Counted from the stretch's first letter, positions 8,344 to 54,624 are shown. The stretch: DNA of 64,000 bases from Burkholderiales bacterium (GCA_035499735.1 DATJYC010000001.1:46016-110015); one strand, 5' to 3'. Notes: generated by a model from the letters alone, not told the origin. Numbers and translations: made by a program.

Positions 8344-8389
8344 CGCGCAGTCCTCGGTTGTTCCGCGGGCGGAAGCCCCGGGCTTCTTT

Positions 8390-28159: not shown

Positions 28160-30207
28160 CCCGGAGTGCTCGCCGGCGCCTCGTCCTCGGGCGAGGCGCC
28201 GAAGAAGCCGCGCCTGAGCTCGCCCAGGCGGTCGCGCGCCTCCGCCGCCTTCTCGAACTCCAGATTGCGAGCGTACTCGAGCATCTGCCTTTCCAGTCGC
28301 TTGATCTCCCGCCCGAGCTGCCTCTCCGACATCGACTCGTAGCGCGCCCGTTCCTGCGCGGCTTTCAGCTGCAGCCCTCCGCCCTCAATGTCGCGCGCAC
28401 CCTCGATCATGTCGCGCACCTGCTTCGAGATGCCGGTGGGCGTGATGCCGCGCTTCGCGTTGAACTCGATCTGCTTGGCCCGGCGCCGGTCCGTCTCCCC
28501 GATCGCCCGCTCCATCGAGTCGGTAACGGTATCCGCGTAGAGGATGGCCATTCCGTTCAGGTGGCGCGCCGCCCTGCCTATGGTCTGGATGAGCGAGCGC
28601 TCCGAGCGCAGGAACCCTTCCTTGTCCGCGTCGAGAATGGCGACCAGCGACACCTCCGGGAGATCCAACCCCTCGCGCAGCAGATTGATGCCGACGAGCA
28701 CGTCGAATTTTCCCAAACGCAGGTCCCGGATGATCTCGACCCGCTCGACCGTCTCGACCTCCGAATGCAGGTAGCGGACCTTGACGCCGTGCTCGGCGAG
28801 GTAGTCGGTAAGCTCCTCGGCCATGCGCTTGGTCAGCGTGGTGACTAGCACGCGTTCGTCGCGCCCGACACGCAGGTTGATCTCGCCGAGGAGGTCGTCG
28901 ACTTGCGTCGAGGCGGGACGCACCTCGAGCACCGGATCGACAAGCCCTGTCGGCCGCACCACCTGCTCCACGATCTGCCCTGACCGTTCGCGCTCGTAAT
29001 CCGCCGGCGTGGCCGAAACGAACACGGTCTGGCGCATCACTCTTTCGAACTCCTCGAACTTGAGCGGACGATTGTCGAGCGCCGAGGGCAGCCGGAAGCC
29101 GTACGCGACGAGGTTCTCCTTGCGTGAGCGGTCGCCCCGGTACATGCCTCCGAGCTGCCCGATGGTGACGTGCGACTCGTCGATGAACATGAGGGCGTTC
29201 GGAGGGAGGTAGTCGATGAGGGTCGGCGGGGGCTCGCCTTCCTTCCTGCCCGAGAGGTGACGCGAGTAGTTCTCTATTCCCTTGCAGAAGCCGAGCTCGT
29301 TCAGCATCTCCAGGTCGAAGCGCGTGCGCTGCTCTAACCTCTGCGCCTCGAGGAGCTTGCCCGCCTTCTGGAAGTGGTCGATGCGCTCGGCGAGCTCGAC
29401 CTTGATGGCCTCGATCGCCCTCAGCGTCGTCGCGCGCGGCGTCACGTAGTGGCTCGACGGATAGACCGTGAAGCGCGGCACCCTCTGGCTCGCGTGACCG
29501 GTGAGCGGATCGAACAGAGTCAGGCTCTCCACCTCGTCGTCCTCGAGCGAGATGCGCAGCGCCGTCTCGGAATTCTCCGCCGGAAAGACGTCGAGGACGT
29601 CTCCCCGCACGCGGAACGCTCCCCGCTTGAACTCGAGCTCGTTCCTCGTGTACTGCATCGCCACGAGGCGCGCGATGATGTCGCGCTGCGACAGCTCCTC
29701 TTTCTCGCGAACGTGGAGGATCATGCCGTGGTAGTCGACCGGGTCGCCGATTCCGTAGATGCACGACACCGTCGCCACGATCACCGCGTCCTCGCGCTCC
29801 AGCAGGGACTTGGTTGCCGAGAGCCTCATCTGCTCGATGTGCTCGTTGATGCTCGAGTCCTTCTCGATGTAGAGGTCGCGAGACGGGACGTAGGCCTCGG
29901 GCTGATAATAATCGTAGTAGGAGACGAAGTACTCGATCGCGTTCTCGGGGAAGAACTCGCGCATCTCGGCGTAGAGCTGCGCCGCCAGCGTCTTGTTCGG
30001 GGCGAGCACCAGCGCCGGCCGTCCGAGGCGCGCGATGACGTTCGCCATCGTGAACGTCTTCCCCGAGCCGGTGACGCCGAGCAGCGTCTGGTAGGAGAGC
30101 CCGTCGCGGATGCCTTCAACGAGCTTCTCGATCGCCTCGGGCTGGTCGCCCGCCGGCGGGAAGGCCTGGGCGAGCCGGAACGGGCTGTCGGGGAAGGCGA
30201 GCATCAT
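28156..30207 (-). CDS. uvrB: excinuclease ABC subunit B
   Basis: Internal start [23 protein letters not shown]...[13 protein letters not shown] (Walker A), DESH, and a C-terminal UVR domain (683 aa). The 1064-aa ORF in the track is a 5' extension running through bioA in another frame. Confidence 0.95.
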
Positions 30208-31517
30208 GTCGAGTCGAGGAGCCTGGCCACGGTGTCCAGCAGGAAATCGATTTCTGCCGTGCCGATGGCGTACGGCGGCATCCAGTATACGGTCGAGCCC
30301 AGAGGCCGGAGCAGTACCCCGGCGTCGAGCGCCTTCCGCGAGAAATCCCTCGCGAATCCCGGCCCGGCGCCTTTCACGTCGAACGCCCAGATCATCCCGG
30401 TGTTGCGGAAGTGCTCGACCCGGGGATGGGAGCGGACCGCCACGGCGCGCTGGTTGAGATAGGCCGCGGTGCCACGGTTGCGCTCGAGGACGCCTTCTTC
30501 CTCCATGACATCGAGCACGGCGAGCGCTGCGCGGCAGGCGAGCGGGTTGCCGCTGTAGGAATGCGAATGCAGGAACGCGCGCTCCAGGGCGTCGTCGTAG
30601 AACGCCCGGTATACGCGCTCGCTCGCCATCACCACCGACAGGGGCAGGTAGCCCCCGGTGATGCCCTTGGACAGGCACAGCAGGTCCGGCGCGATCCCCG
30701 CCTGCTCGCACGCGAACAACGTGCCCGTGCGCCCGAAGCCGACAGCGATCTCGTCGGCGATGAGGAGCACCTCGAAGCGGTCGCAGATTTCCCGCGCCCG
30801 CCGCAGGTATTCCGGGTGGTGCATCGCCATGCCCCCGGCGCATTGCACCAGAGGTTCGACGATCACGGCGGCGGTGCGCTCGGCGTGCCGGTCGAGATGT
30901 GCCTGGAGCGCGAGCGCGCAGCGGGCGCCGAACTCCGCGGGCGTCTCGCCCTCGCGCGCGAGGCGCCAGTCGGGCGACGGCAGCCACGCGCCACTGCGAA
31001 GCAGAGGCTCGTAGCAGTCGCGGTACAGCGCGATGTCCGTCACCGACAGCGCGCCGAGTGTCTCGCCGTGATAGCCGTTGGCGAGAGCCAGGAACTCCGT
31101 CTTCCGCGGCCTGCCGGCGTTCCTCCAGTACTGGTGGCTCATCTTGAGCGCGATCTCGACGGCGGATGCGCCATCCGAGCCGAAGGAGCAGTGGCCCAGG
31201 CCGCCCGGCGCGAGCCGCCCCAGCCGCTCGGCGAGCTGGACCGCGGGCGCATGGGTCAGTCCCGCGAGCATGACGTGCTCCAGCGAGTCGAGCTGAGCGC
31301 GGAGCGCCGCGCCGATTCGCGGGTGGCCGTGCCCGAGCAGGTTGACCCACCAGGAGCTGATCGCGTCCAGAATGCGCCGGCCCTCGAAGTCGTGGAGCCA
31401 GACCCCTTGCGCGAGGCTGATCGGCACCGGCGGCAGCGCCTCATGGTGCTTCATCTGGGTACACGGATGCCAGACCGCATGCACACTGCGTTCGGCGAGT
31501 CCGGCATTCGAACTCAC
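30204..31517 (-). CDS. bioA: adenosylmethionine-8-amino-7-oxononanoate aminotransferase
   Basis: GTG start ([22 protein letters not shown]...). [24 protein letters not shown], and [14 protein letters not shown] (PLP Lys) are present. GTGA overlap with the bioD stop and ATGA overlap with the uvrB start. Confidence 0.9.
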
Positions 31518-32188
31518 GCCGCCGCCTCGATCAGGTGTCTTCGCAGGAGAGGAGCGACGTTTTCGGAATGCGGCTCCCTCAGGAAGGGCACGACGCCGAG
31601 CAGCGGGCAGCCCAGCCTGTCGTCGAGAGCGCGGATGTTCGCCTCGAGCTGCGGCATGCGGGGCGCGATGCAGTTCGCCACCCATCCCGCGCAGCGCAGG
31701 CCGCTCGCGGCGACCTGCGCACCGGTGAGGAGCGCGTGGTTGAGGCAGCCCAGGCGCATTCCCACCACCAGCACGACCGGAAGGGCGAGGCGGCGCGCGA
31801 GGTCGGAGCCATTGGCGCGCCCGTTGAGCGGCACGAGAAAGCCGCCGACGCCTTCGACCACGACGACATCGGCGCGCCGCGACAGGTCTTCATAGGCGCG
31901 CGCGATCGCATCGATCTCGATCGCGACACCGGCGAGCTCGGCCGCGATGTGCGGGGCGATTGCGGCATCGAAGGCGTAGGGGTTCACGAGACTCACGGGT
32001 GCCTCGACGGTGCTCGCCGCAACCAGGGCGTCCACGTCGGCCCAGCGGCCTTCTTCGCTTCCCGCGGCGACCGGCTTCATTCCGACCGTCGAGTTCCCGG
32101 CCGACGCGAAGGCCCGCAGGAGCGCGCAAGCAACGAGCGTCTTGCCGACCCCCGTGTCGGTCCCCGTCACGAAGTAGCCCCGGCCCAC
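31514..32188 (-). CDS. bioD: dethiobiotin synthase
   Basis: (V)GRGYFVTGTDTGVGKTLVACALL P-loop. GTG at 32188 is preferred. A TTG at 32200 overlapping the bioF stop is an alternative start. Confidence 0.85.
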   Translation of the reverse strand: MGRGYFVTGTDTGVGKTLVACALLRAFASAGNSTVGMKPVAAGSEEGRWADVDALVAASTVEAPVSLVNPYAFDAAIAPHIAAELAGVAIEIDAIARAYEDLSRRADVVVVEGVGGFLVPLNGRANGSDLARRLALPVVLVVGMRLGCLNHALLTGAQVAASGLRCAGWVANCIAPRMPQLEANIRALDDRLGCPLLGVVPFLREPHSENVAPLLRRHLIEAAA

Positions 32189-32196
32189 GTCGTCGC

Positions 32197-33372
32197 TCAA
32201 GCGTGAGCCTCGGCGCCGCGGGCGCAGGCTTCGCGCAGTGCCCCCGTGAGGCGGGCAATGTCCTCCTCGCTGTGCGCCGCCGAAAGCGAGATCCGCAGGC
32301 GCGCCGTGCCCTCGGGTACGGTCGGCGGGCGGATCGCCGGAACCAGTATCCCTCGCTCGCGCAGCGCGCCGGCCGCGTCGAGCGCCCTGGCGTTGGCGCC
32401 GAGGACGAGCGGCTGGATCGGCGTATCCGATCGCCCGAGGCGGGGCTCGACGTCGCTCAGCAGGCGCTTGAGAGACCCGATGTGCGCCCTCAGCCGTTCC
32501 CGCCGCCATTCGTCGTCGCGGATCAGCTGGAGGCTGGCCTCCACGGCGGCGCAGAGCAACGCGGGCGTCGCCGTGGTGTAGATATAGGTTCGCGCCCGCT
32601 GCAGCACGGTCTCGACGATGTCCGGCGCGCCGGCGACAAAGGCGCCGGAAACCCCTGCGGCCTTTCCCAGGGTACCGACATAGACGAGACGCGGCGATTG
32701 CGCGGAGAAATACGCCGGCGAGCCCCGTCCTTCGGGACCGAGGACGCCGAAGCCGTGCGCATCGTCGAGCACCAGCAGCGCGTCGTGGCGCTCGCACAGA
32801 TCCAGCAGACCCGGGAGCGGCGCGATGTCGCCGTCCATGCTGAACACGCCGTCGGTGACGACGAGCCTGGCCCCGCCGCCGTAGGACGCTAGCGCGCGAG
32901 ACAGGAAATCGACGTCGCCATGCGGATAGCGCACAACCTGGGCGCGCGACAGGCGAACCCCGTCGATCAGAGACGCATGGTTCAGGGCGTCGGAGTACAC
33001 GACATCCTCCGGTCCCGCGAGGGCTGTGATGACGCCGATATTCGCCTGATAACCGCTCGAGAAGAGGAGCGCCCGCGGCATCCGAACAAATTCGGCGAGC
33101 GCAGACTCGAGGCGATCGTGCTCCGCGCTGTGCCCGCTCAGGAGGTGCGACGCTCCCTGCCCTATTCCGTGGCGCCGCGCCGCGACGACCGCTGCTTCCA
33201 CGACGCGCGGGTGATTGGCAAGCCCAAGGTAGTCGTTGCTGCAGAACGCGACGTACTCTCGCCCCTCGACCCGTATGCGGGGCCCCTGAGCGCCCTCACG
33301 CGCAAGGCGGCGCCGCATCAGGCCCGCGCGACCGATCGCGGCGAGCCGGTCGGCGATGAGTTCGAAGATCAC
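32197..33372 (-). CDS. bioF: 8-amino-7-oxononanoate synthase
   Basis: The GTG start (VIFELIADRL...) lies 1 nt after the aldolase stop. FCSNDYLGLANHP, DDAHGFGVLG, and GTLGKAAG (PLP Lys) are present (391 aa). Confidence 0.9.
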   Translation of the reverse strand: MIFELIADRLAAIGRAGLMRRRLAREGAQGPRIRVEGREYVAFCSNDYLGLANHPRVVEAAVVAARRHGIGQGASHLLSGHSAEHDRLESALAEFVRMPRALLFSSGYQANIGVITALAGPEDVVYSDALNHASLIDGVRLSRAQVVRYPHGDVDFLSRALASYGGGARLVVTDGVFSMDGDIAPLPGLLDLCERHDALLVLDDAHGFGVLGPEGRGSPAYFSAQSPRLVYVGTLGKAAGVSGAFVAGAPDIVETVLQRARTYIYTTATPALLCAAVEASLQLIRDDEWRRERLRAHIGSLKRLLSDVEPRLGRSDTPIQPLVLGANARALDAAGALRERGILVPAIRPPTVPEGTARLRISLSAAHSEEDIARLTGALREACARGAEAHA

Positions 33373-33373
33373 G

Positions 33374-34087
33374 TCATCCCGGCGACTTGAGCCCGGCGAG
33401 GGCCCTGGCGCGCCACATCGGCCACGCGCGGTTATATTCCTGCACCGGGACCGAGGCGCGGATTTCGGCTTCGTCGAGGTAGACGATCTTGCCACCGGGC
33501 CCGGCGATCGTCATCGCCTGCAGCTGCATGCGCGCGCTCAGCTCCAGGTAGATGCTGCGCCCGACCGCGCGCGGCAGGGTCTCGCCCACGGTGACGGAGC
33601 CATGCCCTCGCATGAGCGCCGCGGGACTCCTGCCCAGCGTCTTCGCCAGCGCCTGGCCGAGGTAGGGGGTCTTGACCAGCAGATCGCTACCCTTTTCCGC
33701 GTCGCGGATCTCGAAGTTCGGGACGCCCTGCCCTACGAACGCGGCCATGTGGAACAGCGGCCGCATCGCGACCGCCGTGACGCTGAACGGCACCACCGAG
33801 GGGGAGTGATTGTGGACGACGGCGTTCACCTCGGACCGAGCCTTGTAGATCTCACCGTGGATGAAACGCTCGCGGACCGACTCCCGGCCGCGCGGGTCGA
33901 TCGGGTTGCTGTCTAGGTCATACTCCAGAATGTCGCCATGGGTCACGAGCTCCGGCGCGACCGAGCGCGCGAGCAGGTAGCGCAGGGGATCGCTCGCGGA
34001 GCGCACGCTGACGTGCCCGTAGGCGTCGATCACCCCCTGCTCCGCGAGTATCCGGTACGCAGCGACGAGGTCTTCAACCTGATTCAT
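33374..34087 (-). CDS. class II aldolase/adducin-family protein
   Basis: 237 aa. YGHVSVR...VVHNHSPSVVPFS...MRGHGSVTVG is the typical class II aldolase His-ligand pattern. Confidence 0.85.
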   Translation of the reverse strand: MNQVEDLVAAYRILAEQGVIDAYGHVSVRSASDPLRYLLARSVAPELVTHGDILEYDLDSNPIDPRGRESVRERFIHGEIYKARSEVNAVVHNHSPSVVPFSVTAVAMRPLFHMAAFVGQGVPNFEIRDAEKGSDLLVKTPYLGQALAKTLGRSPAALMRGHGSVTVGETLPRAVGRSIYLELSARMQLQAMTIAGPGGKIVYLDEAEIRASVPVQEYNRAWPMWRARALAGLKSPG

Positions 34088-34105: not shown

Positions 34106-35134
34106 CTAGTCGGCCTTGATGCCGGCGGCGGCCACGACGCGCGACCAGCGTGCGAGCTCCCTGCGCACCAGTTCGCCGAAGTGCTCGGAGCTTCCCCCTA
34201 CCGCGTTCATGCCCTGCTTTGCGAGCAGCGCGCGCGTGTCCGGCTGCGCGAGCAAAGCGTTCAACTCGGCGTTCAGCTTGGCGACGACCGGCGCGCTCGT
34301 GCCCGCAGGAGCGAAGACGCCGTACCACGTGTCCACCTCGAGATCGGTGAGGCCCAGCTCCTTGAGCGTCGGCACTTCCGGGAAGGCCGGGGAGCGTTCG
34401 GCGCTCATCACGGCCAGCATGCGCAGCTTGCCGCTCTGAACATAGGGAGCAACCGTCTGAAGCGACACGATCATCGCCTGCACGTGACCTCCGACGAGAT
34501 CCGTGAGCGCGCCCCCCGATCCCTTATACGGAACATGTACCAGGTCGATGTGCGCATTCTGCTTCAGGAGCTCCATCGCCAGGTGCTGCGGCCCGCCGCT
34601 CCCGGGAGAAGAATAGTAGAGCTTGCCCGGCTGGCTGCGCGCCAGCTCCACGAATTCGCTCATCGACTTGGCTGGCAGCGCCGTTGTGACGATGACGGCG
34701 ACGGAGCTGCTCGCGAGCTGGATCACCGGAACGAAGCTCTTGATGGGATCGAAGGGCAGCTTCCGGTTGACAGCCGGACTGGTGCCGAACGAGGTCGCGG
34801 TGCACAGCAGCGTGTAGCCGTCGGGCGGGGCCTTGGCGACGAAGTCGGTTCCGATATTGCCCGACGCGCCGGCCCTGTTCTCGGTAACCACCGCTACCTT
34901 CCAGCGCTCCGCGAGCTTCGGCCCGAGGATACGCGCGAGAATGTCCGCGCCTGTGCCGGGCGTGTACGGCACCACGATCTGGATCGTGCGGCCCGGCCAG
35001 TCTACTTCCTGCGCGACGCATGGAGCGGGAGCCAGGAGCAGCAGCGCGAACGCCGCGATAGCTGTACCGATCGTCCGAAGCAATGGAATTTCCTCCGGTG
35101 CGCGAATCTCTAAGCCCCAATTATGCCTAAGCAT
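34106..35134 (-). CDS. Bug-family (TctC-like) substrate-binding protein
   Basis: 342 aa. Signal peptide ...LLLLAPAPCVAQ, TIQIVVPYTPGTGADILARIL...ENRAGASGNIGTDFVAKAPPDGYTLL. The exact start is uncertain. Confidence 0.8.
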   Translation of the reverse strand: MLRHNWGLEIRAPEEIPLLRTIGTAIAAFALLLLAPAPCVAQEVDWPGRTIQIVVPYTPGTGADILARILGPKLAERWKVAVVTENRAGASGNIGTDFVAKAPPDGYTLLCTATSFGTSPAVNRKLPFDPIKSFVPVIQLASSSVAVIVTTALPAKSMSEFVELARSQPGKLYYSSPGSGGPQHLAMELLKQNAHIDLVHVPYKGSGGALTDLVGGHVQAMIVSLQTVAPYVQSGKLRMLAVMSAERSPAFPEVPTLKELGLTDLEVDTWYGVFAPAGTSAPVVAKLNAELNALLAQPDTRALLAKQGMNAVGGSSEHFGELVRRELARWSRVVAAAGIKAD

Positions 35135-35233: not shown

Positions 35234-35309
35234 TCCCCGATAGCTCAGCTGGTAGAGCGACGGACTGTTAATCCGCAGGTCCCAGGTTCGAGCCCTGGTC
35301 GGGGAGCCA
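35234..35309 (+). tRNA. tRNA-Asn (anticodon GTT)
   Basis: Acceptor stem TCCCCGA/TCGGGGA, D-arm AGCTCAGCTGGTAGAGC, anticodon loop CTGTTAA, T-arm GGTTCGAGCCC, and an encoded CCA end. Confidence 0.95.
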
Positions 35310-35321
35310 CGTTTCTTGCCC

Positions 35322-36929
35322 TCACGCGACCACCGTCCCGTTGCGGTGGCCGACGACCACCCGGTTGCGGCCGGCCCCCTTTGCCGCGTAGAGCGCCATG
35401 TCGGCGACGCGCAGCAGTCCGTCGGCGTCCTGCGCATGATCGGGGTACAGTGCGACGCCGAAAGACGCAGCGATCCGTCCGAGGCCTTTCCCCTCGTAGC
35501 TGAGCTCTAGACCCCAGATCGAACCGCGGATGTCCTCGGCGCGTCGCTCGGCCGCCTCCAGGCCGGTTTCCGGAAGCACCAGAGCGAACTCCTCCCCTCC
35601 GTAGCGGCACGCGATGTCGCTTCCCCGCACCTTGCCTTTCAGCAGATTCCCTACTGAATTGAGCACGAGGTCCCCCGCTTCGTGCCCGAAGGAATCGTTG
35701 ATCCGCTTGAACCGGTCGAGGTCCAGCAGGATGACGGCGACCGGCGCGGTGTTCCGCCCGGATCGAGCCAGCTCGCGCGGCAGGAATTCGCTGATGTAGC
35801 GGCGGTTGTAGAGGCCGGTCAGCGGGTCCGATATCGCCTGCTCCTGCAGGCGCCTTTCGCGCTGTTGCAGCGCTCCGGCCATATCGTCGAAAGCGTGCGC
35901 AAGCTGGCCGAGCTCCTCGTTGCCGTAGACGATTCCAGTACGGGCGTTCAGATCGCCGCCACGCATCCGCTCGGCCGCGCGAAGAAGCGCCCTGAACTTG
36001 CGCAGCATGAACAGCTCCGCTCCGAACCAGGCGGCGACCAGCAGGAACAGCGTGGCCAGGGTTATGCCGAGCAGGTCACGGACCAGCGCACGATTGGCCT
36101 CGGCGAAAACCCGGCTGAGCGGCACCGTGATCAGGACGCGCAGCGGAAAGGCGCCGTCGGGGTTCTTGTAGATCACCTGGTGGGCGAGCAGCCACGCGAC
36201 TCCGTCCTCGCCCTTGACCTCGAGCACGCCCTCGCTGCCGGCGAGTATCGACTCGATCACCTGCGGGTTCCAAAGCTTTTGTCCGATTCGCTCCTTCAAG
36301 GCCGGCTTTCGCGAGAGAATCGTGCCCTTGACGTCGATCACGCTCAGGATGCCCTCGGGGGGCAGCGGGGTCGCCTCGGCCATGCGCGCGAGATTCTCGA
36401 GGTCGAGTCCGGCGAACGCCACTGCACGTACCTTCTTGTCCGCGTCCGTCACAGGAAATCCGAAATTGATCCCGGCCTGCCTCGTCACGCGTCCGATCTG
36501 ATATCCGCCCACGGCAAAACGGCCGGTCTCCTTGGCCAACCTGAAGTAGAGGCGGTCGCCGCTGTACACCTTGGCCTGCCATGTCACCGCGTTGCAAAGC
36601 AGGTTGCCGGTCTCGTCGAACAACCCCATGGCGTGATAGCTGTTCCGGTTCTGAGCAAGCAGATTCCTGAAGTAGTCCGTGCAACGCTTCCTGTCCTCGA
36701 GCAGCGTAACGAGAATGGGCAGCGAAGCCACCATCATCTGCCTTGCGCTCTCCACGACCTGCCACTGCTGCATCGCGGCCAGCTTCACCAGACGGACAAG
36801 CTCGGCACGCGCCTGCCTCTCCTGCGATTCGCGGCGCTCCAGCGCGCTGTAGACGGTGAAAGCCAGCGCGGGAAGAGCCGCAAGTACCACGAGCAGCAGT
36901 ATCCGTGCGCGGGTCTTGAGGTTGGTCAT
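35322..36929 (-). CDS. membrane diguanylate cyclase: periplasmic Cache-like sensor - HAMP - GGDEF
   Basis: Internal start MTNLKTRARILLLVVLAALPALA (TM1), an approximately 280-aa periplasmic domain, TM2, a HAMP domain (...GDLNARTG...LAHAFDDMAGAL), and a GGDEF domain with RGSDIACRYGGEEF (RxxD I-site plus GGEEF). Confidence 0.9.
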   Translation of the reverse strand: MTNLKTRARILLLVVLAALPALAFTVYSALERRESQERQARAELVRLVKLAAMQQWQVVESARQMMVASLPILVTLLEDRKRCTDYFRNLLAQNRNSYHAMGLFDETGNLLCNAVTWQAKVYSGDRLYFRLAKETGRFAVGGYQIGRVTRQAGINFGFPVTDADKKVRAVAFAGLDLENLARMAEATPLPPEGILSVIDVKGTILSRKPALKERIGQKLWNPQVIESILAGSEGVLEVKGEDGVAWLLAHQVIYKNPDGAFPLRVLITVPLSRVFAEANRALVRDLLGITLATLFLLVAAWFGAELFMLRKFRALLRAAERMRGGDLNARTGIVYGNEELGQLAHAFDDMAGALQQRERRLQEQAISDPLTGLYNRRYISEFLPRELARSGRNTAPVAVILLDLDRFKRINDSFGHEAGDLVLNSVGNLLKGKVRGSDIACRYGGEEFALVLPETGLEAAERRAEDIRGSIWGLELSYEGKGLGRIAASFGVALYPDHAQDADGLLRVADMALYAAKGAGRNRVVVGHRNGTVVA

Positions 36930-37054: not shown

Positions 37055-37082
37055 TTGCGAGCTTTCGATTTGGGAGTATAGT
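37055..37082 (+). promoter_or_regulatory. candidate sigma-70 promoter of the rpfF-like gene
   Basis: TTGCGA-N16-TATAGT, followed by a roughly 55-nt leader and AAGGGA 7 nt before the ATG at 37145. Confidence 0.4.
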
Positions 37083-37144: not shown

Positions 37145-38068
37145 ATGAACGCACCGGTCGATTTTGGAGCAATACAGGGGATTTTTCAAAAGCAATACCG
37201 GCAAATCGAAGTCCGTTTCGATCCCGACTTGAGCGCCGCTTGGACCTACATGAAGCCCTCCGGCGCACCCTGCTTCAACCTGGGCATGCTCGAAGAGCTG
37301 CGCGCCCACGATAGCGCGATCGAGTCCTCCGGAGGACGCGTGCTCCACCACGGGGAGCTCCACCAGATCCACTACTACGTCGGCGCCTCCAGAATAGAGG
37401 GCATCTTCAGCCTCGGCGGGAATCTCGCGAATCTCGTGCAGCTGATCCGCTCGGGCGACCGTGACACTCTCGTCCGCTATGCCAAGCTGTGCGTCGACAA
37501 CATGTACCCGAGGTTGTGCAACTACAACAGCCCGATCACCACGATCTCGCTGGTACAGGGAGAGGCGCTCGGGGGAGGTTTCGAGACCGCGCTCGCTTCG
37601 AACGTCATCATCGCCGAGCGTCGCTCGCAGATGGGCCTGCCGGAAATCCTGTTCAACCTCTTCCCCGGCAACGGCGCCTACAGCCTGCTCGCGCGGCGCG
37701 TCGGGATCAGGCGCGCCGAGGAGATGATCCTCTCGGGACGAGTCTATACCGCGGTCCAGCTTAGGGACATGGGCGTAGTGGACGTGATCGCGGAAAACGG
37801 CGACGGCGAGGCGGCAGTTCGCGCCTATATCCGCGGCAACGAGCGGCGTCGCAACGGCATGCAGGCGATGTTCGAGTGCCGTCGGCACCTCGATCCCGTG
37901 AGCTACGAAGAGCTGCTCAACATCGCGAATGTCTGGGTCGACGCCGCGCTGCGCGTCGAGGAAAAGGATCTCAAGCTGATGAGCCGTCTCGGACGCTCGC
38001 AGATCCGGCGCACGGAAGGGCCCGCCGTCGAGGAACCTGCCCGCGAATTCCGCTTCGCGATGGCCTGA
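37145..38068 (+). CDS. rpfF: RpfF-like DSF-family signal synthase (crotonase/enoyl-CoA hydratase fold)
   Basis: 307 aa. IFSLGGNLANLVQLIRSGDRDTLVRYAKLCV parallels Xanthomonas RpfF ...FNLGGDLALFCQLIREGDRARLLDYAQRCV. ALGGGFETAL and GLPEILFNLFPGNGAYS carry the two catalytic Glu positions (Xcc sequence recalled from memory). Confidence 0.85.
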   Translation: MNAPVDFGAIQGIFQKQYRQIEVRFDPDLSAAWTYMKPSGAPCFNLGMLEELRAHDSAIESSGGRVLHHGELHQIHYYVGASRIEGIFSLGGNLANLVQLIRSGDRDTLVRYAKLCVDNMYPRLCNYNSPITTISLVQGEALGGGFETALASNVIIAERRSQMGLPEILFNLFPGNGAYSLLARRVGIRRAEEMILSGRVYTAVQLRDMGVVDVIAENGDGEAAVRAYIRGNERRRNGMQAMFECRRHLDPVSYEELLNIANVWVDAALRVEEKDLKLMSRLGRSQIRRTEGPAVEEPAREFRFAMA

Positions 38069-38232
38069 GCAACGCCTCGAGCCGGCTCCCGAGTGAACCG
38101 AGGGGGCCGGTCTTGGCCGCGAATCCGCGGCCTGCCGGGGCGGCTCTGGTCCGTCTTGACCGGTGCGTCCAGACGCGCCCCGGCAGTACTTTCCCGCTTG
38201 GCCCGTTGCGGGCGCGCAAGCCCGCGCTTCCA

Positions 38233-39501
38233 TCAGGGCCGAAAACCAGCAAGAAGCAGGCTCGCATTGGTACCGCCGAATCCGAAGCTATTGGAGAGAA
38301 TCGTGCGCAGCTCGGTCTGGCGCGTGGACCGAACGACGGGCAACCCTTCGAAGTCGGGGTCCAGCGTCTCGATGTTGATCGAAGGCGCGATGAAGCCGTG
38401 CTCAAGCATGGCCACGCAGAAAATCGTCTCCAGTGCGCCCGCCGCGCCCAGAGGATGGCCAGTCATCGACTTCGTGGATGAGAACGGCGGGAGCGCCCCA
38501 CCGAACACCGTCTTCATCGCGATCACCTCGGCGAGGTCGCCCTTGGACGTCGAAGTGCCGTGGGTCTTCACCGCGCCGACGTCGCCGGGGCCGATCCCCG
38601 CGTCGCGCATGGCGCTGAGCATGCACTTCGCGGCGTGAGCGCCAGTCGGCTCCGGCATCACCATGTCGAACCCGTCCGAGCTGGTGCCAAAGCCGATGAC
38701 CTCGGCGCGCACTCTGGCACCCCGCGCGAGCGCAAGATCGAGAGCCTCCAGAACGACGATGCCCGCTCCGCCGCCGATCACGAAGCCGTCGCGCTCGCGA
38801 TCGTACGGGCGGGATGCGCGTTCCGGGGTGTCGTTGTACTTCGAGGAGAGTGCGAATCTCAGTGCCTGGAATCCCGCGGTGATCAGCGGGTGCACCTCCT
38901 CCCCTCCTCCGGCGATCACGCGCTCCACGAGACCATTGCGGATGAGCTCGTACGCCGTCCCGATGCTGTGCGAGGATGTCGAGCAGGCCGAGCTGATCGA
39001 GTAGCTGCGACCGTGGACCTTGAGCAGGTTGGCCACCGCCGCGCTCGAGGAGCTCGCCATGCCTTTCAGCACGACGAAGGGGCTGAGCTTGGAGATCTCG
39101 CCGGCGTAGACCTGCCGTCCCCCGGCGTAGATCGATTCGACGCTCCCGATACCCGTCCCGACGATGCAGGCTGTGGCATCCGACTGCACTTCGGCCTCCG
39201 AGAGGCCGGAATCCCCGACCGCATCGAGCGCGGCGATGCAGCAGTACTTGGACGCTTCCGACATCGTCGGCAGCAGTCTCTTCGGGATCGGCGTGCGCTC
39301 GAGCTTGGACTCCACTCCGGCAATCGCACCCGCCACCCGGCTCTTGAGGCCCAAACCTTCCCATTCCGGCATGCCGCGCACGCCACTCGCTCCGGCCCGA
39401 AGAGCTTCGACGACCCGGGGATACTCGTGCCCCAGACACGAGACCAGACCCACTCCGGTGATCGCCACGCGCCGAGAGGCCATCGATCGGAACCGCGTCA
39501 C
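38233..39501 (-). CDS. dedicated beta-ketoacyl-ACP synthase (FabB/FabF-type, intact Cys-His-His triad)
   Basis: RRVAITGVGLVS, YSISSACSTSSHSIG (Cys), KTHGTSTSKGD (His), TGHPLGAAG (His), and [15 protein letters not shown]. The GTG at 39501 overlaps the ACP stop (GTGA). An ATG at 39483 (MASRRVAITG) is an alternative start. Confidence 0.85.
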   Translation of the reverse strand: MTRFRSMASRRVAITGVGLVSCLGHEYPRVVEALRAGASGVRGMPEWEGLGLKSRVAGAIAGVESKLERTPIPKRLLPTMSEASKYCCIAALDAVGDSGLSEAEVQSDATACIVGTGIGSVESIYAGGRQVYAGEISKLSPFVVLKGMASSSSAAVANLLKVHGRSYSISSACSTSSHSIGTAYELIRNGLVERVIAGGGEEVHPLITAGFQALRFALSSKYNDTPERASRPYDRERDGFVIGGGAGIVVLEALDLALARGARVRAEVIGFGTSSDGFDMVMPEPTGAHAAKCMLSAMRDAGIGPGDVGAVKTHGTSTSKGDLAEVIAMKTVFGGALPPFSSTKSMTGHPLGAAGALETIFCVAMLEHGFIAPSINIETLDPDFEGLPVVRSTRQTELRTILSNSFGFGGTNASLLLAGFRP

Positions 39502-39761
39502 GCCGACCGCGAGCGCCGCTGGCTTTTCTCGATCGCCTCGAACAGCTCGCCTATGCTCTGGATGCGGCTCAGCTCCTCGTCGTCGAATTCGACACCCAAG
39601 GCGCCCTCCAGCTCGGACGCGAGCGTGATGAGAATCAGAGAGCTGATGTCCAGATCGTCTCGGAGTGAAGTCGCGTCGGTGACCTCCGCCGCGGAGATTT
39701 TGGCATCGGATGAGGCAAGGAGGCGGTGGATTACCTGATCCCGCAGTGCTGAATCGATCAT
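39498..39761 (-). CDS. dedicated acyl carrier protein
   Basis: 87 aa. MIDSALRDQVIHRLL...LRDDLDISSLILITLASELEGALGVEFDDEEL, an ACP four-helix pattern with the Ser attachment motif (D-I-S-S-L in place of D-S-L). It starts 20 nt after the rpfC stop. Confidence 0.8.
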   Translation of the reverse strand: MIDSALRDQVIHRLLASSDAKISAAEVTDATSLRDDLDISSLILITLASELEGALGVEFDDEELSRIQSIGELFEAIEKSQRRSRSA

Positions 39762-39781
39762 TTGACCCGAACCCTGATCCG

Positions 39782-42292
39782 CTAGCGCGCGGCGCTTTGG
39801 CTCTTCCTCAGATACTCCAGCAGCGACGCGCGTGTCTGCTGGAAGTGTTCGCGCACCAGCTTGAGCGCCCTCGGCGCGCTCGCTTCCAGCTCCGAGCTCG
39901 TCTGTGCATTGATGCCCACGCACGTCTTGCACAGCTGATCCGCACCCAGCGTCACCGCCGAGCCCTTCATCGCGTGAACCAGATCCTTCAAGCCGTCGTA
40001 CTGCTTGGCGGCTATCGCGGCCTCCATCTGCCGCAGCAGGGCCTCGCCGTCCTGGATGAAGCCGTTGACGAGTTCCGGCATGAAACTGCCTCCCGAGCCG
40101 ATCAGCTCGAGCTCGGCCAGCGCGGCCGCGTTGATGATCGCTGGCTCGGCTTCCGCGACGCTCTCGGCCGCGGCCGCCTGCTCGCTCGCCCGCTTGGAGA
40201 CGAGGTGCGCGATCGTATCCAGCAGCCGGCGCGCCTCGACCGGCTTGGATAGGAACGCGTCCACGCCCGCATCCTCGCATTCCTTTCGAGCTTCCGCGGT
40301 CACGTCCGCGGACAGCATGATGATCGGAACATGCACCGCTTCCGGATCCATGAAACGGTAGGCGCGCGCCGCGTCCAGCCCGCCCAGCTCCGGCATGTTC
40401 AGGTCCATGATCACGACGTCGAAACGCTCGTTCTCAAGAACGTCGAGCGCCTGCTCGCCGTCGCCCACCACCCTGACTCTGTGTCCCGCGCGCTCCAGTA
40501 TCCCCACGATGACACGCTGGTTGACCGCGTTGTCTTCCGCCACGAGTACCTGATAGCGGCGCTTGTTGGCGTCGCGCGCCGCGTAGTAGTCGCTGAGCGA
40601 TATGACCCCTTCCTGGCTTTCCTGGACGGCGGTCGCGGAATGGATCGCGTTGAACAGCAGCCGCTTCTTGAAAGGCAACTCGAGCACCGCCGCGAACCCG
40701 CTGGCCAGCGCCGCGGCCGTGCGATCCTGGGAAAGGCCACGCCCGCATAGCACCAAGGGAGGATGCTTCTGGCCGCGAAGACTGCTCAGGCGACCGACAA
40801 GGCGCGCGTGCTCGATCTCCCCTGCCTCACGAATCAGCACAAGATGGTAGGGGTGCCCGAGTGACTGTGCTTCCGCGAGCCGCGCCCCCGCTGCGTCCGG
40901 CCCCGCTTCACGCCCGGTACGCGCTCCCCACGTGGAGAGGTCGTGCTCGAGCGCGCGAAGCTCCGCCTCCGCAAAGCCGAGGAGCATGATGCGGGTGTCG
41001 TTCAGCCGGAAGGATGTCTCGGGGGCCTGACCCGCGATCTGCTTCTTGAGCTGCAGTTCAAACCAGAAAGTGCTGCCCTTGCCCGGCGTGCTCTGCAACC
41101 CGATCTGGCCTCCCATCATCTCCACCAGCTGCTTGGAGATCGTGGTTCCCAATCCGGTTCCGCCGTAGCGCCGCGTGGTCGATTCGTCCGCCTGCGTGAA
41201 GCTCTCGAAGATTCGGTCTTGCGCCTCCGGCGCGATGCCGATGCCCGTATCCTCGATGGAGAACCTCAGGCGGACCGCATGGTCGCTTTCACCCAGGCTG
41301 GAAACCGTGAGGCTGACGCTGCCCGCCTGGGTGAACTTGATGCCGTTCCCGATGAGGTTGTAGAGCACCTGCCGCAGGTGGTACGGATCTCCCCGCAGCG
41401 CATGCGGAACCTCCGGCATGACGTGCGCCCTGAACTGCAGGCCCCGGATCTCGGCTTGTGGGCCGAGCACTACCGCTGTCCCGTTGATTAGGCTGTGCAG
41501 GTCAAAATCGGTCTCCTCGATGCTGACCTTGCCTGCCTCGATCTTCGAGATGTCCAGCACGTCCTCGATGAGCTTGAGCATGGCGTGCGATGCTTCGTGC
41601 ATCGCCTTCACCATCTCCGCCTGCTCGGCGTTCAACTGCGTATCGCGCAGCAGATCGTTCATGCCGATGATTGCGTTCAGCGGAGTGCGCATCTCGTGGC
41701 TGACGGTGGACAGGAACCTGCGCTTCGCCTGGTTCGCGGCTTCCTCGCGACGCAACGAGTCGAACAGACGCGTCACCATCTTTCCGACCCAAAACGCGAG
41801 CACGATCATTCCCACGAGAAGCCCGAGGCCGAGCGTTCGGTTTTCGATCCAGTACTCGCTGAACGAGAGGACAAGGCCGAAGCCGAGGACGCTCAGGGCC
41901 AGTGCGTTGTACAGGTACGGCTTTCCGTAGCGGAACCCGTGTCCGAACATGACCACGAGATAAATGGTGTACAGAACCGCCCCCGACTCCCCCAAGTAGT
42001 ACATGAACGCGGAAGTCGAGCCGATGTCCAGGAAGGCGGCGAAAACGCGCCGCGGAGGCGTCGCTCGCGGCGCGACCTGGATCCAGGCCAGGACCGTCAC
42101 GCATAGGACCAGATAGCAACCCATCGCGGCGAACAGCAGGGCGTTCGGCCCGCCCTCGCCGACAGCGTGGGGCAGAAGGTAAAGGAACAGCACCAGCCCG
42201 ACGCCGAGGCGCAGTTTCGCCTGCTCCTGCTCGGTGTCCGCGCCGCCGGTTATGCGACCGCGGAGGCGCGCGAGGAGCGAGTTCGACGCCAT
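39782..42292 (-). CDS. rpfC: RpfC-like hybrid sensor kinase: polytopic membrane sensor - HisKA - HATPase - pseudo-receiver - REC - HPt
   Basis: Internal start [40 protein letters not shown] (836 aa). About 5-6 TM helices with a GHGFRYG loop, an H-box [14 protein letters not shown] (His199), and G-boxes EDTGIGI/GGTGLG. The REC domain has VVIMDLNMP (Asp630) and the HPt has HAMKGSA (His773). Confidence 0.85.
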
Positions 42293-42303
42293 CGGGGTTG
42301 CGG

Positions 42304-43413
42304 TTACTCCGCGATCTGGTCGGCGAAGCGCTCGCCGATAGACAGGACTTCGTCGCGCTCGCGCGAAAGGATTTCCACGAGCTTCGGATCGAAGTGGCGT
42401 CCAGCGTGGTCTTCCATGTACGCGAGCGCCTCGTCGACCGGCCACGCCGGCTTATAAGGGCGCACCGACGTCAGAGCGTCGTAGACGTCCGCGATCGCGA
42501 CGATGCGCGCCTCCAGGGGGATGTGCTCGCCCCGCAGCCCCGTGGGGTAGCCGCTGCCGTCGTACTTCTCGTGATGCCCGAGCGCGATCACGGCGGCCAT
42601 CTGCAGATAACCGGAGGAGCTGTCCTTGAGCATGTCGTACCCGATTCGCGCATGCGATTGCATGACGCGCAGGTCGTTGCCGTCGAGCCTGCCAGGGTTC
42701 TGCAAGATGCGGTCGGGAATGCCGATCTTTCCGATGTCGTGCATCGGAGCTGCAAGCTCGATCGCGTCCTGCTCGGCGGCAGACAGGCCCACCCCTCTGG
42801 CGATGAGGGCAGAGTACTTTGCCATGCGCACCAAGTGCATACCGGTGACCTTGTCGCGCTGTTCCGCGGCCTTGGCGAGCCGAAACAGCGTTTCCACCTC
42901 GCGCCGGCGCAGCTCGCGCGTCGCCTCGTCGATCTTCTGTTCGAGGATCCGCGTGCGGTTCTTCTTCAGGATCTCATGGCGGCGCAGACTCAGCAGATTG
43001 CGGCACCTGGCACCGCATTCCAGCCGGTCGATGGGGCGGATGAGGAAGTCGGTCGCCCCGGCCTCGAGAGCACGGTACCGCACCTCGCGATCGTTCACGA
43101 CAGTGATGCATACGATGGGCACGTCCTCGTAGCCGAAGATGCGCCGCAAGCGCCGGATCACCTCGATTCCGTCCAGGTTCGGCATTTTGTAATCGGTGAG
43201 CACCATGTCGACGGCATGCCGGCGTGCGAACTCAATGGCCTCGAGCGGATCGGCAAAGGTGGTGACTTCGAGGCTGGCGTCCAAGCCTCTCATGATTTCG
43301 CTGAGGACGATGCGCCCCGTAGACTGATCGTCTATGACCAGCACTTTCAGGGGCGCGAGCTTCGCCTCGACCGAATCGTGAACCAGCGTTAGCGGTCTAG
43401 ATGTAGTTTTCAT
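42304..43413 (-). CDS. rpfG: RpfG-like response regulator with HD-GYP c-di-GMP phosphodiesterase domain
   Basis: Internal start MKTTSRPL... (369 aa). REC domain (VLVIDDQ...[13 protein letters not shown]). HD-GYP domain ([13 protein letters not shown]...[14 protein letters not shown]). Confidence 0.9.
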
Positions 43414-43479
43414 GGTTTTCCTGCCCTGGAACTGGAACAGGCCGCCCCCAGCCCGCTCCCTCCCTGAACTTCGCATTAC

Positions 43480-43512
43480 ACTATATTTGCCGTGGAATGG
43501 CGAGGAATTCCA
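43480..43512 (-). promoter_or_regulatory. candidate rpfG operon promoter (-10 TATAGT) with overlapping TGGAAT-N8-ATTCCA inverted repeat
   Basis: On the minus strand, TATAGT at 43485-43480. A perfect 6-bp-arm palindrome sits at 43493-43512 over the -35 position. AGGAAA lies 5 nt before the ATG at 43413. Confidence 0.35.
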
Positions 43513-43528
43513 GACCGTTACATTTCCG

Positions 43529-44902
43529 TCATACCACGTTGTCATATGTGGTGCGCTGCATCGGCACCCTGAATCCGTCCTCCATCTCCCGGCGTAGCCT
43601 CACGGCGGCGCTGGAGCCGTCGACGGCCACGTCGCTCCACAGCAAGGGCGCACCAGCCCGAACGGGCCTGAGGACCTTGGCTTCATGCGCGAGCCCCAGG
43701 GGCAGCGCCCCCAAGCGGAGGGACTCGGCCGCCGGCATCAACCTACCCACCACAGTGTAACCCCCTTCGCCGTCAAGCAATTCTCCCGTTCGCAGGTCCC
43801 GTTTCGCCGTCGCGACGGCGTCCGCGCGGAATCCCGACGGGCAGCCCGTAGCCTCGCCACGGAGTCCAACGGAGGCCACGGAGATGCCGACTTCGAGCCC
43901 GATGAGGTGCCACCGCTTGTACATGCATGCGTAGCGCCCCGAGGGGTCGGTACGCACCCCGTATTCCAGGAAGCAGCGGCGGATGTAGTCCGATTCCCCC
44001 TCGAATACCACCCAGACGCCGAAGCGGATGTCGTAGGGTATCGCGGTTCCGTCGCGCTCCAGCGACGAAACCACCTCCACCTGGCCCTTGTGGTGGAGGC
44101 ATCCTCCCTCGGACCTGGGCCGCATGATCGCAGGCAACGCGTCGATCGACGCGCTCGGATACGCCAGACCATCCGGCGCGGGCGTCAACCCCGTCGCGTT
44201 GCTCACGGCGGTGCACTCGATCGCAGGCTTCGAGCCGTCCAGAAAGGAATTGAAGATCTTCGGGTTCAGCCCGCCGAGGCGTGCCTGCTCGGAGGTGAGC
44301 CCGTAGTGCTGCCATACCGTCTCGGGCGTCGATTGCGCGAAGTGCGGGAGCCATTTGTGGCCGCGCCCCGCGGCGACGACCGGAAATCCGGCTGCGCGGG
44401 CCCAATCGACGAGGTCACAGATGATCGCCGGCTGATCGCCGTAGGCCAGGCTGTAGACCACCCCCGCTTCTCGGGCCTTTTTCGCGAGCAGCGGTCCGCA
44501 GACCGCGTCGGCCTCCACGGTGACCATGATTACGTGCTTGCGGTTGTGGAATGCCGCGAGCGCGTGCGCGACGGCTGCAATCGGGTTTCCCGTCGCCTCG
44601 ATCACTATGTCGATCGACGGGTGGGATACCAAGCCCTCCCAGTCCTCCGAAAGGTGCGTCTTTCTTTCCTTCAGCGCCGCGTCCAGTGATGCCGCGGCGT
44701 AGCTCTCGGGCTTCCATCCCACTCGGGCAAGGTTCGCACGCGCGCCTTCGGGCGAGAGATCGGCGATTCCCGCAATGTGTACGCCCGGCGTGCGCGTGGC
44801 CTGGGCGAGGTACATCGCCGCGAACTTGCCTGCGCCGATCACGCCGACGCGGAGGGGCCTGCCCTGAGCCTCGCGCTCCTGCAGCTTCGCGTGGAGGTTC
44901 AT
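43529..44902 (-). CDS. NAD(P)-binding, SAF-domain oxidoreductase (homoserine-dehydrogenase-like, COG4091-type)
   Basis: 457 aa. Rossmann motif VGVIGAGKFAAMY at the N-terminus, a central dehydrogenase-like region, and a C-terminal SAF-like beta-clip (...LLDGEGGYTVVGRLMPA...). Confidence 0.65.
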   Translation of the reverse strand: MNLHAKLQEREAQGRPLRVGVIGAGKFAAMYLAQATRTPGVHIAGIADLSPEGARANLARVGWKPESYAAASLDAALKERKTHLSEDWEGLVSHPSIDIVIEATGNPIAAVAHALAAFHNRKHVIMVTVEADAVCGPLLAKKAREAGVVYSLAYGDQPAIICDLVDWARAAGFPVVAAGRGHKWLPHFAQSTPETVWQHYGLTSEQARLGGLNPKIFNSFLDGSKPAIECTAVSNATGLTPAPDGLAYPSASIDALPAIMRPRSEGGCLHHKGQVEVVSSLERDGTAIPYDIRFGVWVVFEGESDYIRRCFLEYGVRTDPSGRYACMYKRWHLIGLEVGISVASVGLRGEATGCPSGFRADAVATAKRDLRTGELLDGEGGYTVVGRLMPAAESLRLGALPLGLAHEAKVLRPVRAGAPLLWSDVAVDGSSAAVRLRREMEDGFRVPMQRTTYDNVV

Positions 44903-44908
44903 CGGAGT

Positions 44909-45751
44909 CTACGCCGCGGCGAGCGGCTTGAGGGCCTCCGCCGGGGTGCCGTCCTTCCAGGGAAGCGGCACTTCGTAGTCCTCGAGCAGGCAATCGTCCG
45001 GCAGGCAGCGCAGCGGCGTGAAATCCCGGTGCGCAATGTATTCGGGACGCTTGAATCGCCGGATGTGATTCGACACAGCGCACAGGCTCAGATAGACGCT
45101 CACCCGGTTCCAGGGCGACAGGTTGGATGTGGACGCGTGCACCAGGCACGAGTGGAACAGGATCATCGATCCGGGCGGACCCTTGGGGGCGACGAGGCCG
45201 CCGCGCTGCACGAGCTTCGCGATCGTTTCGTGGTCGATGGTCCACAGGGGATAGCTGGTCGTGGAAAGATCGTGCCTCGCCTCGAGGACGCCGCGCTCGT
45301 GGCTCCCCGGGATCAGCATCAGCGGACCGTTGAACTCGTTCACCTCGTCCAGGAATATGGCGACATTCATCGCTCGGGCCTCGGGCATCCAGTCATCGTT
45401 CTTCCATGTGCCGTAGTCTTGGTGCCACTGCCAGACGTCGCCGTCGAAGGCCATCTTCCCGTTGATCTTGAACTGGTGCATGTACACATCTTCGCCGAAG
45501 ATCTGGACAATCGGCTCGACCATGCGCGGATGACGGGCGAGCTTCGCGAACGGAAGGCTGTAAAGGTGCGCGGCGAAATTCGTTCGAACGGCATCGCTGC
45601 CCTTCTCGCGCACGTTCTCCGGCCGGCGTTGAGCGTAAAGTCGCGGGACCTCCTCGGTCAGCACCTTGATCTCCTCCGCTCGGAACAGACTCGGAAAGAA
45701 GAGATAGCCGTCGCGCTCGAACTGTCTAACGTGCTCGTGGCTGAGCTTCAT
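44909..45751 (-). CDS. Fe(II)/2-oxoglutarate dioxygenase, PhyH/EctD-like
   Basis: 280 aa. FERDGYLFFPSLF, WQWHQDYGTWKNDDWMP (HxD facial-triad motif, resembling the ectoine-hydroxylase signature), and a distal His in ILFHSCLVHAS. Confidence 0.8.
   Translation of the reverse strand: MKLSHEHVRQFERDGYLFFPSLFRAEEIKVLTEEVPRLYAQRRPENVREKGSDAVRTNFAAHLYSLPFAKLARHPRMVEPIVQIFGEDVYMHQFKINGKMAFDGDVWQWHQDYGTWKNDDWMPEARAMNVAIFLDEVNEFNGPLMLIPGSHERGVLEARHDLSTTSYPLWTIDHETIAKLVQRGGLVAPKGPPGSMILFHSCLVHASTSNLSPWNRVSVYLSLCAVSNHIRRFKRPEYIAHRDFTPLRCLPDDCLLEDYEVPLPWKDGTPAEALKPLAAA

Positions 45752-48490: not shown

Positions 48491-54624
<6,134 letters not shown>

Follow-up and report, generated by a model that had tools for sequence, protein, structure and literature searches.

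A predicted DSF-type signalling locus with a built-in acyl carrier protein and ketoacyl synthase pair in an uncultured soil betaproteobacterium

The stretch of 64,000 nucleotides analyzed here (hereafter, the window) comes from a Burkholderiales bacterium (GCA_035499735.1, DATJYC010000001.1:46016-110015) and contains, at positions 37145-43413, a diffusible signal factor (DSF)-type locus. It encodes an RpfF-family crotonase, an RpfC-type hybrid sensor kinase, an RpfG-type regulator and, between rpfF and rpfC, an acyl carrier protein (ACP) and a beta-ketoacyl-ACP synthase (KAS). From homology and gene layout, we consider it likely that these genes form a chromosomal DSF-type circuit leading into cyclic di-GMP (c-di-GMP) turnover, in which the synthase would be supplied by a dedicated ACP/KAS module, in an uncultured soil betaproteobacterium. 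The original prediction described a complete DSF locus with three core genes. Calling of open reading frames (ORFs) placed these three genes exactly where they had been reported. The ACP and KAS genes, which fill 1.5 kb of the 6.3-kb span, had been overlooked, and they are the only unusual feature of the locus.

The crotonase is a homologue of RpfF-family DSF synthases, and dehydratase and thioesterase activities are predicted for it from these homologues. In Pfam it matches ECH_1 (5e-21) and ECH_2 (1e-8), and in NCBIfam it scores 347 bits against the model PRK08788 (cut-off 177). Its best matches in the Protein Data Bank (PDB) are 7zq7, 3m6m (RpfF of Xanthomonas campestris pv. campestris, Xcc), 6dgn and 5fus, which score 171-184 bits over 250-280 aligned residues, compared with 61 bits or less for ordinary crotonases in the same search, a likeness well beyond what chance would give. 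Identity amounts to 39% with Xcc RpfF and 34% with the solved RpfF entry 6dgn. The two catalytic-glutamate contexts pointed out originally (GGGFE and GLPE) were both recovered. Glu147 in LGGGFE and Glu167 in MGLPE align with Glu141 and Glu161 of Xcc RpfF, the catalytic residues of that enzyme (PMC9864630), and are invariant in an alignment of eight family sequences. Seven further residues of Xcc RpfF, Gly85, Leu136, Gly137, Gly138, Met170, Trp258, and Leu276, have been proposed to form the pocket or to interact with the substrate (PMC9864630). Six of the seven are kept in the window crotonase: Gly91/Gly92, Leu142, Gly143, Gly144, and Trp264 fall in invariant columns, and Leu282, placed opposite Leu276 by the numbering offset alone, falls in a column that is not invariant. 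The seventh residue differs. The window protein has Asn176 in place of Met170, which together with a second hydrophobic residue has been proposed to touch the DSF precursor (PMC9864630). The corresponding motif reads LFPGNG in the window, and LFPGMG in the homologues from two distant metagenomic loci (L030 and L031) and in three aligned solved RpfF-type sequences.

The hybrid kinase is of the RpfC type, with sensing of DSF-family acids predicted from homologues. A 26-aa N-terminal sensor stretch is followed by a polytopic membrane input region and by HisKA (8e-22), HATPase_c (1.5e-30), Response_reg (9e-25), and Hpt (4e-10) domains, all four above the Pfam cut-offs; the phospho-acceptor motifs [19 protein letters not shown] and HAMKGSA are both found. 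The best PDB match of the receiver domain (REC) is the receiver of Xcc RpfC (3m6m chain D, 6e-31). In the hydropathy profile of the input region four membrane segments are strong and one or two more are weaker, which is compatible with the five-helix model of the Xcc protein. An exhaustive search with the 181-aa input region matched 1743 representative clusters at E<=1e-3, of which 935 remained at E<=1e-10. Nine input-domain clusters were looked up, and five of them have members that bear the label RpfC from the Joint Genome Institute (JGI). The sensor was compared with that of Xcc through published residues and a family consensus. Residues 15-22 of Xcc RpfC are R-A-D-S-E-H-A-Q, of which Arg15, Asp17, Ser18, Glu19, and Gln22 are essential for DSF sensing; the S18T variant is functional (PMC5391125). 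Residues 17-24 of the window kinase are G-A-D-T-E-Q-E-Q, where Asp19, Glu21, and Gln24 are identical to the Xcc residues and Thr20 stands for Ser18. The family consensus, drawn from 157 aligned segments of the 150 best representatives, reads R-P-D-[ST]-E-H-E-Q-A-x-x-R, with a later G-N-G-F-R-Y-G loop; the window kinase keeps the motif D-[ST]-E-x-E-Q and the G-x-G-F-R-Y-G loop. Tandem copies of this sensor occur elsewhere in the family: a 1257-aa metagenomic protein (P0279) has three successive matches to the RpfC-type membrane sensor in its N-terminal half, and the representatives P0299, P0325, and P0322 have two copies.

The regulator is RpfG-type with intact HD and GYP motifs, and c-di-GMP phosphodiesterase activity is predicted for it. 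It matches Response_reg (3e-22) and HD_5/HD (HD_5 1.4e-36) in Pfam, and of the PDB entries the HD-GYP protein 4mcw matches it best (1e-54); with this protein HDIGK (in MHDIGK) and [11 protein letters not shown] are aligned. Domain searches, the PRK08788 score, PDB matches, and the sensor motif support the RpfF-, RpfC-, and RpfG-type identities first assigned by reading the sequence. Pfam returned the whole set of domains expected from that assignment (ECH_1; HisKA, HATPase_c, Response_reg, and Hpt; Response_reg with HD_5/HD), and every motif quoted in its support was found, namely [25 protein letters not shown], the HD-GYP motif given above and, in the kinase input region, EQEQAKLRL and GHGFRYG. 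The three genes also keep their arrangement. As originally noted, rpfG and rpfC run convergently toward rpfF, resembling the geometry of Xanthomonas (PMC4504480), and the coordinates and strands bear this out. The same arrangement was observed in 18 related species-level genomes, where the rpf locus is syntenic, and in L030 and L031, whose three proteins are about 43-58% identical to those of the window.

The rpfG, rpfC, acp, and kas genes follow one another closely in the same direction as a single string, with gaps of 11, 20, and 14 nt from rpfG to rpfC, rpfC to acp, and acp to kas, respectively. The KAS matches ketoacyl-synt (4e-38) and Ketoacyl-synt_C (1e-31) in Pfam. Its best NCBIfam model is KAS I (434 bits, under the cut-off of 630), its best PDB matches are FabB proteins (360 bits for 3oyt versus about 280 bits for FabF), and its Cys-His-His triad is intact. 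The ACP is divergent: it stays under the cut-offs of all AcpP-type NCBIfam models (best score 36.5 versus 71), and its phosphopantetheine attachment serine, read from the translation, lies within LDISSL. Housekeeping fabB and acpP genes were considered for this pair and rejected, because the curated cut-offs are missed and the pair is present in some close relatives and absent from others.

The distribution of the pair demonstrates that it is accessory. It was found in 11 of the 18 related genomes and is absent from the other seven. To enlarge this set, 80 metagenome loci were added, and the presence of the pair was mapped on a neighbor-joining tree of 67 distinct RpfF sequences, which requires at least five gain or loss events. 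More than 50 loci in all carry the KAS, and in every one the pair is situated between rpfF and rpfC. The loci lacking it contain no remnants of either gene, and their rpfF-to-rpfC gaps are 48-252 bp. The residue at the position of Asn176 varies along with the pair. All 48 loci that encode an Asn-type RpfF and have a determinable downstream gene continue with the KAS gene, compared with ten of the 32 Met-type loci (22 lack it) and neither of the two Ala-type loci. The Asn-type sequences form one clade in the RpfF tree; therefore the link between Asn176 and the KAS represents one evolutionary event in a KAS-bearing lineage and not 48 independent cases. The RpfF of locus L034 (574-1530) is a mosaic in which both ends are identical to the Met-type protein of L100 and the center is Asn-type; it may have arisen by recombination within the lineage or may be a chimera of metagenome assembly.

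How such a circuit would work can be outlined from its homologues. RpfF would dehydrate 3-hydroxyacyl-ACP to cis-2-enoyl-ACP and cleave the thioester, releasing a free cis-2-unsaturated fatty acid (PMC4542539). RpfC would sense this acid through its short N-terminal stretch and membrane input region and autophosphorylate, and the phosphate would be relayed from the H-box to the REC and HPt domains of RpfC and further to the receiver of RpfG. The HD-GYP domain of RpfG would then hydrolyze c-di-GMP and lower its level (PMC4504480). The diguanylate cyclase encoded next to rpfF is probably the source of c-di-GMP beside this phosphodiesterase; its connection to the locus is putative. The contribution of the ACP and KAS can be suggested from gene anatomy alone. 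Their genes would be co-transcribed after rpfC, and an acyl chain would be built on the private carrier: the KAS would condense malonyl-ACP with an acyl primer, the reduction would fall to a housekeeping FabG, and RpfF would dehydrate and release the product. Since acp and kas follow rpfG and rpfC in one string, the receptor and the precursor supply would be co-expressed. Such a module would fix the chain of the signal or insulate housekeeping fatty-acid synthesis from the RpfF thioesterase, and Asn176 would adapt RpfF to the substrate or the carrier of the module.

A bolder proposal, which we offer tentatively and regard as rather doubtful, is that the ACP, the KAS, and the Asn176-type RpfF constitute a self-contained signal line, separate from housekeeping fatty-acid synthesis and yielding a structurally new DSF-family acid. 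This might be an acid of another chain length or one with a 2,5-dienoic or otherwise polar-substituted chain. If so, sensing would directly boost synthesis, as the pair would be transcribed together with the receptor genes. This would be the first DSF system to make its signal independently of housekeeping fatty-acid synthesis, and it would be widespread in a soil lineage that is abundant and uncultured.

Several observations weigh against a DSF circuit fed by its own ACP/KAS module. The crotonase reaches 206 bits on NF053515, the NCBIfam model named RpfF, and so remains under its cut-off of 550. The solved RpfF entry 6dgn also fails this model (184 bits), and 3m6m and 7zq7 score 525-569 bits on it; 7zq7, which passes this RpfF equivalog with 569 bits, is deposited merely as a crotonase-family protein. 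All three score 396-408 bits on PRK08788 (396 for 6dgn). Because of these scores of three solved RpfF-type sequences, we regard PRK08788 as an umbrella for RpfF-type enzymes, to which the window crotonase belongs, and NF053515 as a narrower model. In the kinase, the essential Arg15 of Xcc is replaced with Gly17, and glycine occupies this position in four of 129 aligned family sequences. This change does not track with the presence of the ACP/KAS pair, as Arg, Ser, Gln, and Gly are found in both groups of relatives. Genes for FabG, FabD, and a phosphopantetheinyl transferase are missing from the locus. Roughly half of the close relatives have no ACP/KAS, and thus the circuit does not require the pair. 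The association of Asn176 with the KAS is phylogenetically confounded, given the single Asn-type clade and the ten Met-type loci that also carry the KAS. Finally, the organism is known from metagenome-assembled genomes (MAGs) alone.

One more such observation leads to the strongest of the alternatives. In eight of the Met-type KAS-bearing loci, a PlsC-family acyl-ACP-dependent acyltransferase is encoded between rpfF and the KAS gene. It has the NHxxxxD and FPEGT motifs, and its matches to 1-acylglycerol-3-phosphate (AGP) acyltransferase, acyl-ACP-phospholipid O-acyltransferase, and OlsA are under the cut-offs. These loci hint at a lipid, instead of the signal, as a possible destination of the private acyl-ACP. 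The core DSF circuit would then stand, and the ACP and KAS, in some loci together with the acyltransferase, would be a separate lipid-modification module, regulated by the rpf operon or hitch-hiking in it, whose product is an unusual acyl chain destined for a membrane lipid and not a substrate for RpfF. Such a role would agree with the many relatives that run the rpf locus without the pair and with an outgroup cassette of ACP, KAS, and FabZ-like genes that has no signalling genes nearby. Against it stand the constant position of the pair, which in the window follows rpfC by 20 nt, and the restriction of the asparagine in the RpfF pocket to KAS-bearing loci. The acyltransferase is also absent from the window (best tblastn E >0.01) and from the whole Asn-type clade. 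On balance we judge this explanation unlikely, and prefer a DSF-type circuit whose synthase is supplied by the module. The slot between rpfC and rpfF holds another type of gene in the distant locus L031, where it is occupied by a Haem_oxygenas_2-family gene (5198-5839), which suggests that it is a general landing site for accessory genes.

Two other explanations are far less probable. The crotonase could be an ordinary beta-oxidation or CoA-dependent hydratase beside an unrelated two-component pair, with coincidental likeness to rpf genes. The generic ECH_1 and ECH_2 domains are all that Pfam offers, the RpfF equivalog cut-off is missed, and the window kinase and regulator stay under the cut-offs of any curated NCBIfam models that are specific for RpfC or RpfG. 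We nevertheless hold this to be very improbable, and it was already disfavored by the PDB scores of RpfF-type proteins, three times those of any other crotonase, by the PRK08788 score at twice the cut-off, by the RpfC-family sensor motif in the kinase input, and by the persistence of the three genes in the Xanthomonas geometry in loci as distant as L030 and L031.

An ACP, a ketosynthase, and a protein of the enoyl-CoA hydratase type recall the beta-branching cassettes of the 3-hydroxy-3-methylglutaryl (HMG) type in trans-acyltransferase polyketide synthase systems, and the KAS and ACP have weak NCBIfam matches to the cispentacin models AmcF and AmcB. That these genes belong to such a cassette, or to another for a secondary metabolite, with the two-component system merely regulating it, is equally improbable, and the polyketide cassette was rejected: the flanking genes scanned include no HMG-CoA synthase, second enoyl-CoA hydratase, or polyketide synthase gene, the KAS is closest to FabB and keeps the active-site cysteine that the cassette ketosynthases lack, and the crotonase is specifically RpfF-like and occurs without ACP/KAS in many relatives.

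The features of the locus, its neighbors, and the related loci discussed above are collected in Table 1.

Table 1. Coordinates of the rpf locus, neighboring features, and related genes in other loci. Positions are in the window unless a locus is named.
Feature	Position	Strand	Details
TctC-family (Bug-type) periplasmic receptor gene	25019-25993	+	
Class-III and class-I/II aminotransferase genes	30204-33495	-	
TctC-family (Bug-type) periplasmic receptor gene	34106-35134	-	
tRNA-Asn (GTT)	35234-35309	+	Rfam/ARAGORN
Sensor diguanylate cyclase dCache_1-HAMP-GGDEF	35322-36929	-	Pfam GGDEF 6e-47, HAMP 1e-9, dCache_1 7e-8 (under Pfam cut-off)
Sigma-70-like promoter match upstream of rpfF	37055-37082	+	TTGCGA-16-TATAGT, 9/12 consensus positions; consensus match only
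rpfF-family crotonase	37145-38068	+	307 aa; PRK08788 and RpfF-type PDB matches (see text)
18-nt inverted repeat	38132-38186		89% complementary, 19-nt loop; unstranded; within the 164 bp that separate convergent rpfF and KAS genes
FabB-like beta-ketoacyl-ACP synthase (KAS I type), last of the rpfG-rpfC-acp-kas string	38233-39483	-	416 aa; Pfam, NCBIfam, PDB
Divergent acyl carrier protein	39498-39761	-	87 aa; Pfam PP-binding 2e-8
RpfC-type hybrid sensor kinase	39782-42292	-	836 aa, likely ATG at 42292; Pfam
RpfG-type REC-HD-GYP regulator, first gene of the putative operon	42304-43413	-	369 aa; Pfam
DRL-type oxidoreductase	43529-44902	-	
PhyH-family dioxygenase	44909-45751	-	
AMP-binding gene, acetyl-CoA-synthetase-like	52642-54624		
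PlsC-family acyltransferase	L020 9955-10851	+	Also in L072, L090, L097, L099, L100, L101, L034
ACP, FabB-like KAS, FabZ-like dehydratase cassette	L026-L029, about 7730-9760		Thermoanaerobaculia MAGs

The full ORF of the kinase is 39782-42445 (-), and the start at 42292 was selected since related proteins have 834-836 aa. The full ORF of the regulator is 42304-43545 (-); its likely start, 43413, coincides with the end of the span as first delimited. The start of the KAS is fixed by a MAG protein (P0121) of 416 aa that is 100% identical to it, and that of the diguanylate cyclase (MTNLK...) was picked to fit relatives of 532-547 aa. The cyclase gene is divergent from rpfF and retains this position in most related MAG loci. 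The inverted repeat between rpfF and the KAS gene is a candidate for a bidirectional terminator hairpin; it has no T-run.

The locus is embedded in ordinary chromosomal backbone, with flanking genes for RNase E, biotin-synthesis-like aminotransferases, two TctC-family receptors, enolase, a DAHP-synthase-family protein, and CTP synthase. The TctC genes and the G+C content of 62-71% fit a betaproteobacterial backbone. The close relatives all come from soil, as MAGs or metagenome contigs that bear the label Burkholderiales or Betaproteobacteria bacterium, and the locus was found in dozens of such contigs. The names 'uncultured Enterobacteriaceae' and 'Gammaproteobacteria' given to some related MAG records look like noise in the labels. 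The aminotransferase genes are syntenic with a row of Aminotran_3, CbiA/AAA_26, and Aminotran_1_2 genes in relatives; these are probably bioA, bioD, and bioF, a housekeeping context outside the present finding. The tRNA-Asn gene, between a TctC-family gene and the GGDEF gene, is the sole Rfam/ARAGORN match in the window. Directly upstream of rpfG, on the same strand, are the oxidoreductase and the PhyH-family dioxygenase, the latter with ectoine hydroxylase as its best NCBIfam match (178 bits, under the cut-off of 336). This pair is kept in nearly all close relatives and not in L030 and L031.

Nearly all work on DSF signalling has dealt with pathogens of plants and humans, which draw the signal from their general fatty-acid synthase. 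The predicted circuit described here is fixed in the chromosome of a common uncultured soil lineage, a large subclade of which has gained its own carrier protein, condensing enzyme, and polar substitution in the RpfF pocket. If the module does feed RpfF, the locus would show how a quorum signal can become chemically private and insulated from primary metabolism, and would point to an undescribed DSF-family molecule in soil. If it does not, this is one more rpf cluster of the kind that automatic annotation can recognize.

The closest parallel among the characterized systems is that of Xanthomonas. Both have an RpfF-type crotonase with the two catalytic glutamates, an RpfC-type kinase with a short N-terminal sensor, membrane input, and the HisKA-HATPase-REC-HPt architecture, an RpfG of the REC-HD-GYP type, and the convergent geometry (PMC4504480, PMC5391125). 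Unlike Xanthomonas, the window appends acp and a FabB-like KAS gene to rpfGC, carries the Met170-to-Asn and Arg15-to-Gly replacements, and has a dCache-HAMP-GGDEF gene beside rpfF. The rpfB and rpfH genes are not present in the locus; no AMP-binding gene adjoins rpfF, and the only one in the window is the acetyl-CoA-synthetase-like gene listed in Table 1. Neither rpfB nor a Clp-type effector was found in the part of the window's ORFs that was scanned. The linkage of rpfB (fatty acyl-CoA ligase) to rpfF is variable even among xanthomonads, as is rpfH. In Xanthomonas, RpfB offsets the drain that the RpfF thioesterase imposes on the acyl-ACP pool (PMC4504480). The substrate of RpfF is 3-hydroxyacyl-ACP from the fatty-acid synthesis cycle, for which Xcc draws on the housekeeping enzymes and AcpP (PMC4542539), with a contribution from an unlinked specialized reductase, FabG2 (PMC5941067).

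The Burkholderia DSF (BDSF) system of Burkholderia cenocepacia and Cronobacter also has a synthase of the PRK08788 family and c-di-GMP turnover as its output (PMC4504480). In contrast to the membrane-bound RpfC and the HD-GYP regulator RpfG of the window, its sensor is RpfR, a soluble PAS-GGDEF-EAL protein encoded convergently with rpfF, a distinction drawn correctly in the original prediction (PMC4504480). The GGDEF protein next to rpfF in the window has neither a PAS nor an EAL domain, and its gene is divergent from rpfF.

It had also been suggested that an RpfC/RpfG-type circuit would be remarkable in a genome of this kind. This was not borne out. By published descriptions, the same three-gene circuit outside Xanthomonadaceae is shared with Thiobacillus, Methylobacillus, Methylophaga, and Leptospirillum (PMC4504480, PMC9040794), of which Thiobacillus and Methylobacillus are betaproteobacteria already listed with rpfF-rpfG-rpfC clusters (PMC4504480). 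DSF-family compounds have been detected in Leptospirillum cultures, and the layout of its cluster is unidirectional (PMC8357829). The JGI pipelines already label close relatives of the window proteins as 'DSF synthase' and 'sensor histidine kinase RpfC'. An rpf cluster with a carrier protein or condensing enzyme within it is nowhere described in the literature searched, whose incomplete coverage makes this weak evidence.

For the ACP/KAS pair, the nearest counterparts outside the lineage are encoded in MAGs of Thermoanaerobaculia (Acidobacteriota), where the ACP (39-48% identical) and the KAS (59-63%) are adjacent and in the same order. There they are followed by a FabZ-like hot-dog 3-hydroxyacyl-ACP dehydratase, in the place held by RpfF in the window. 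Carrier, condensing enzyme, and dehydratase make up one and the same triad in both, RpfF being a crotonase predicted to act likewise as a 3-hydroxyacyl-ACP dehydratase and also as a thioesterase. This cassette is free of rpf signalling genes, and its neighbors are two aldehyde dehydrogenases, an NAD-dependent reductase/epimerase-like gene, and a metallophosphatase. Taken against these systems, the rpfF-rpfG-rpfC core is of a known kind and not new for betaproteobacteria, and the unusual part of the locus is the built-in ACP/KAS pair together with the change in the RpfF pocket.

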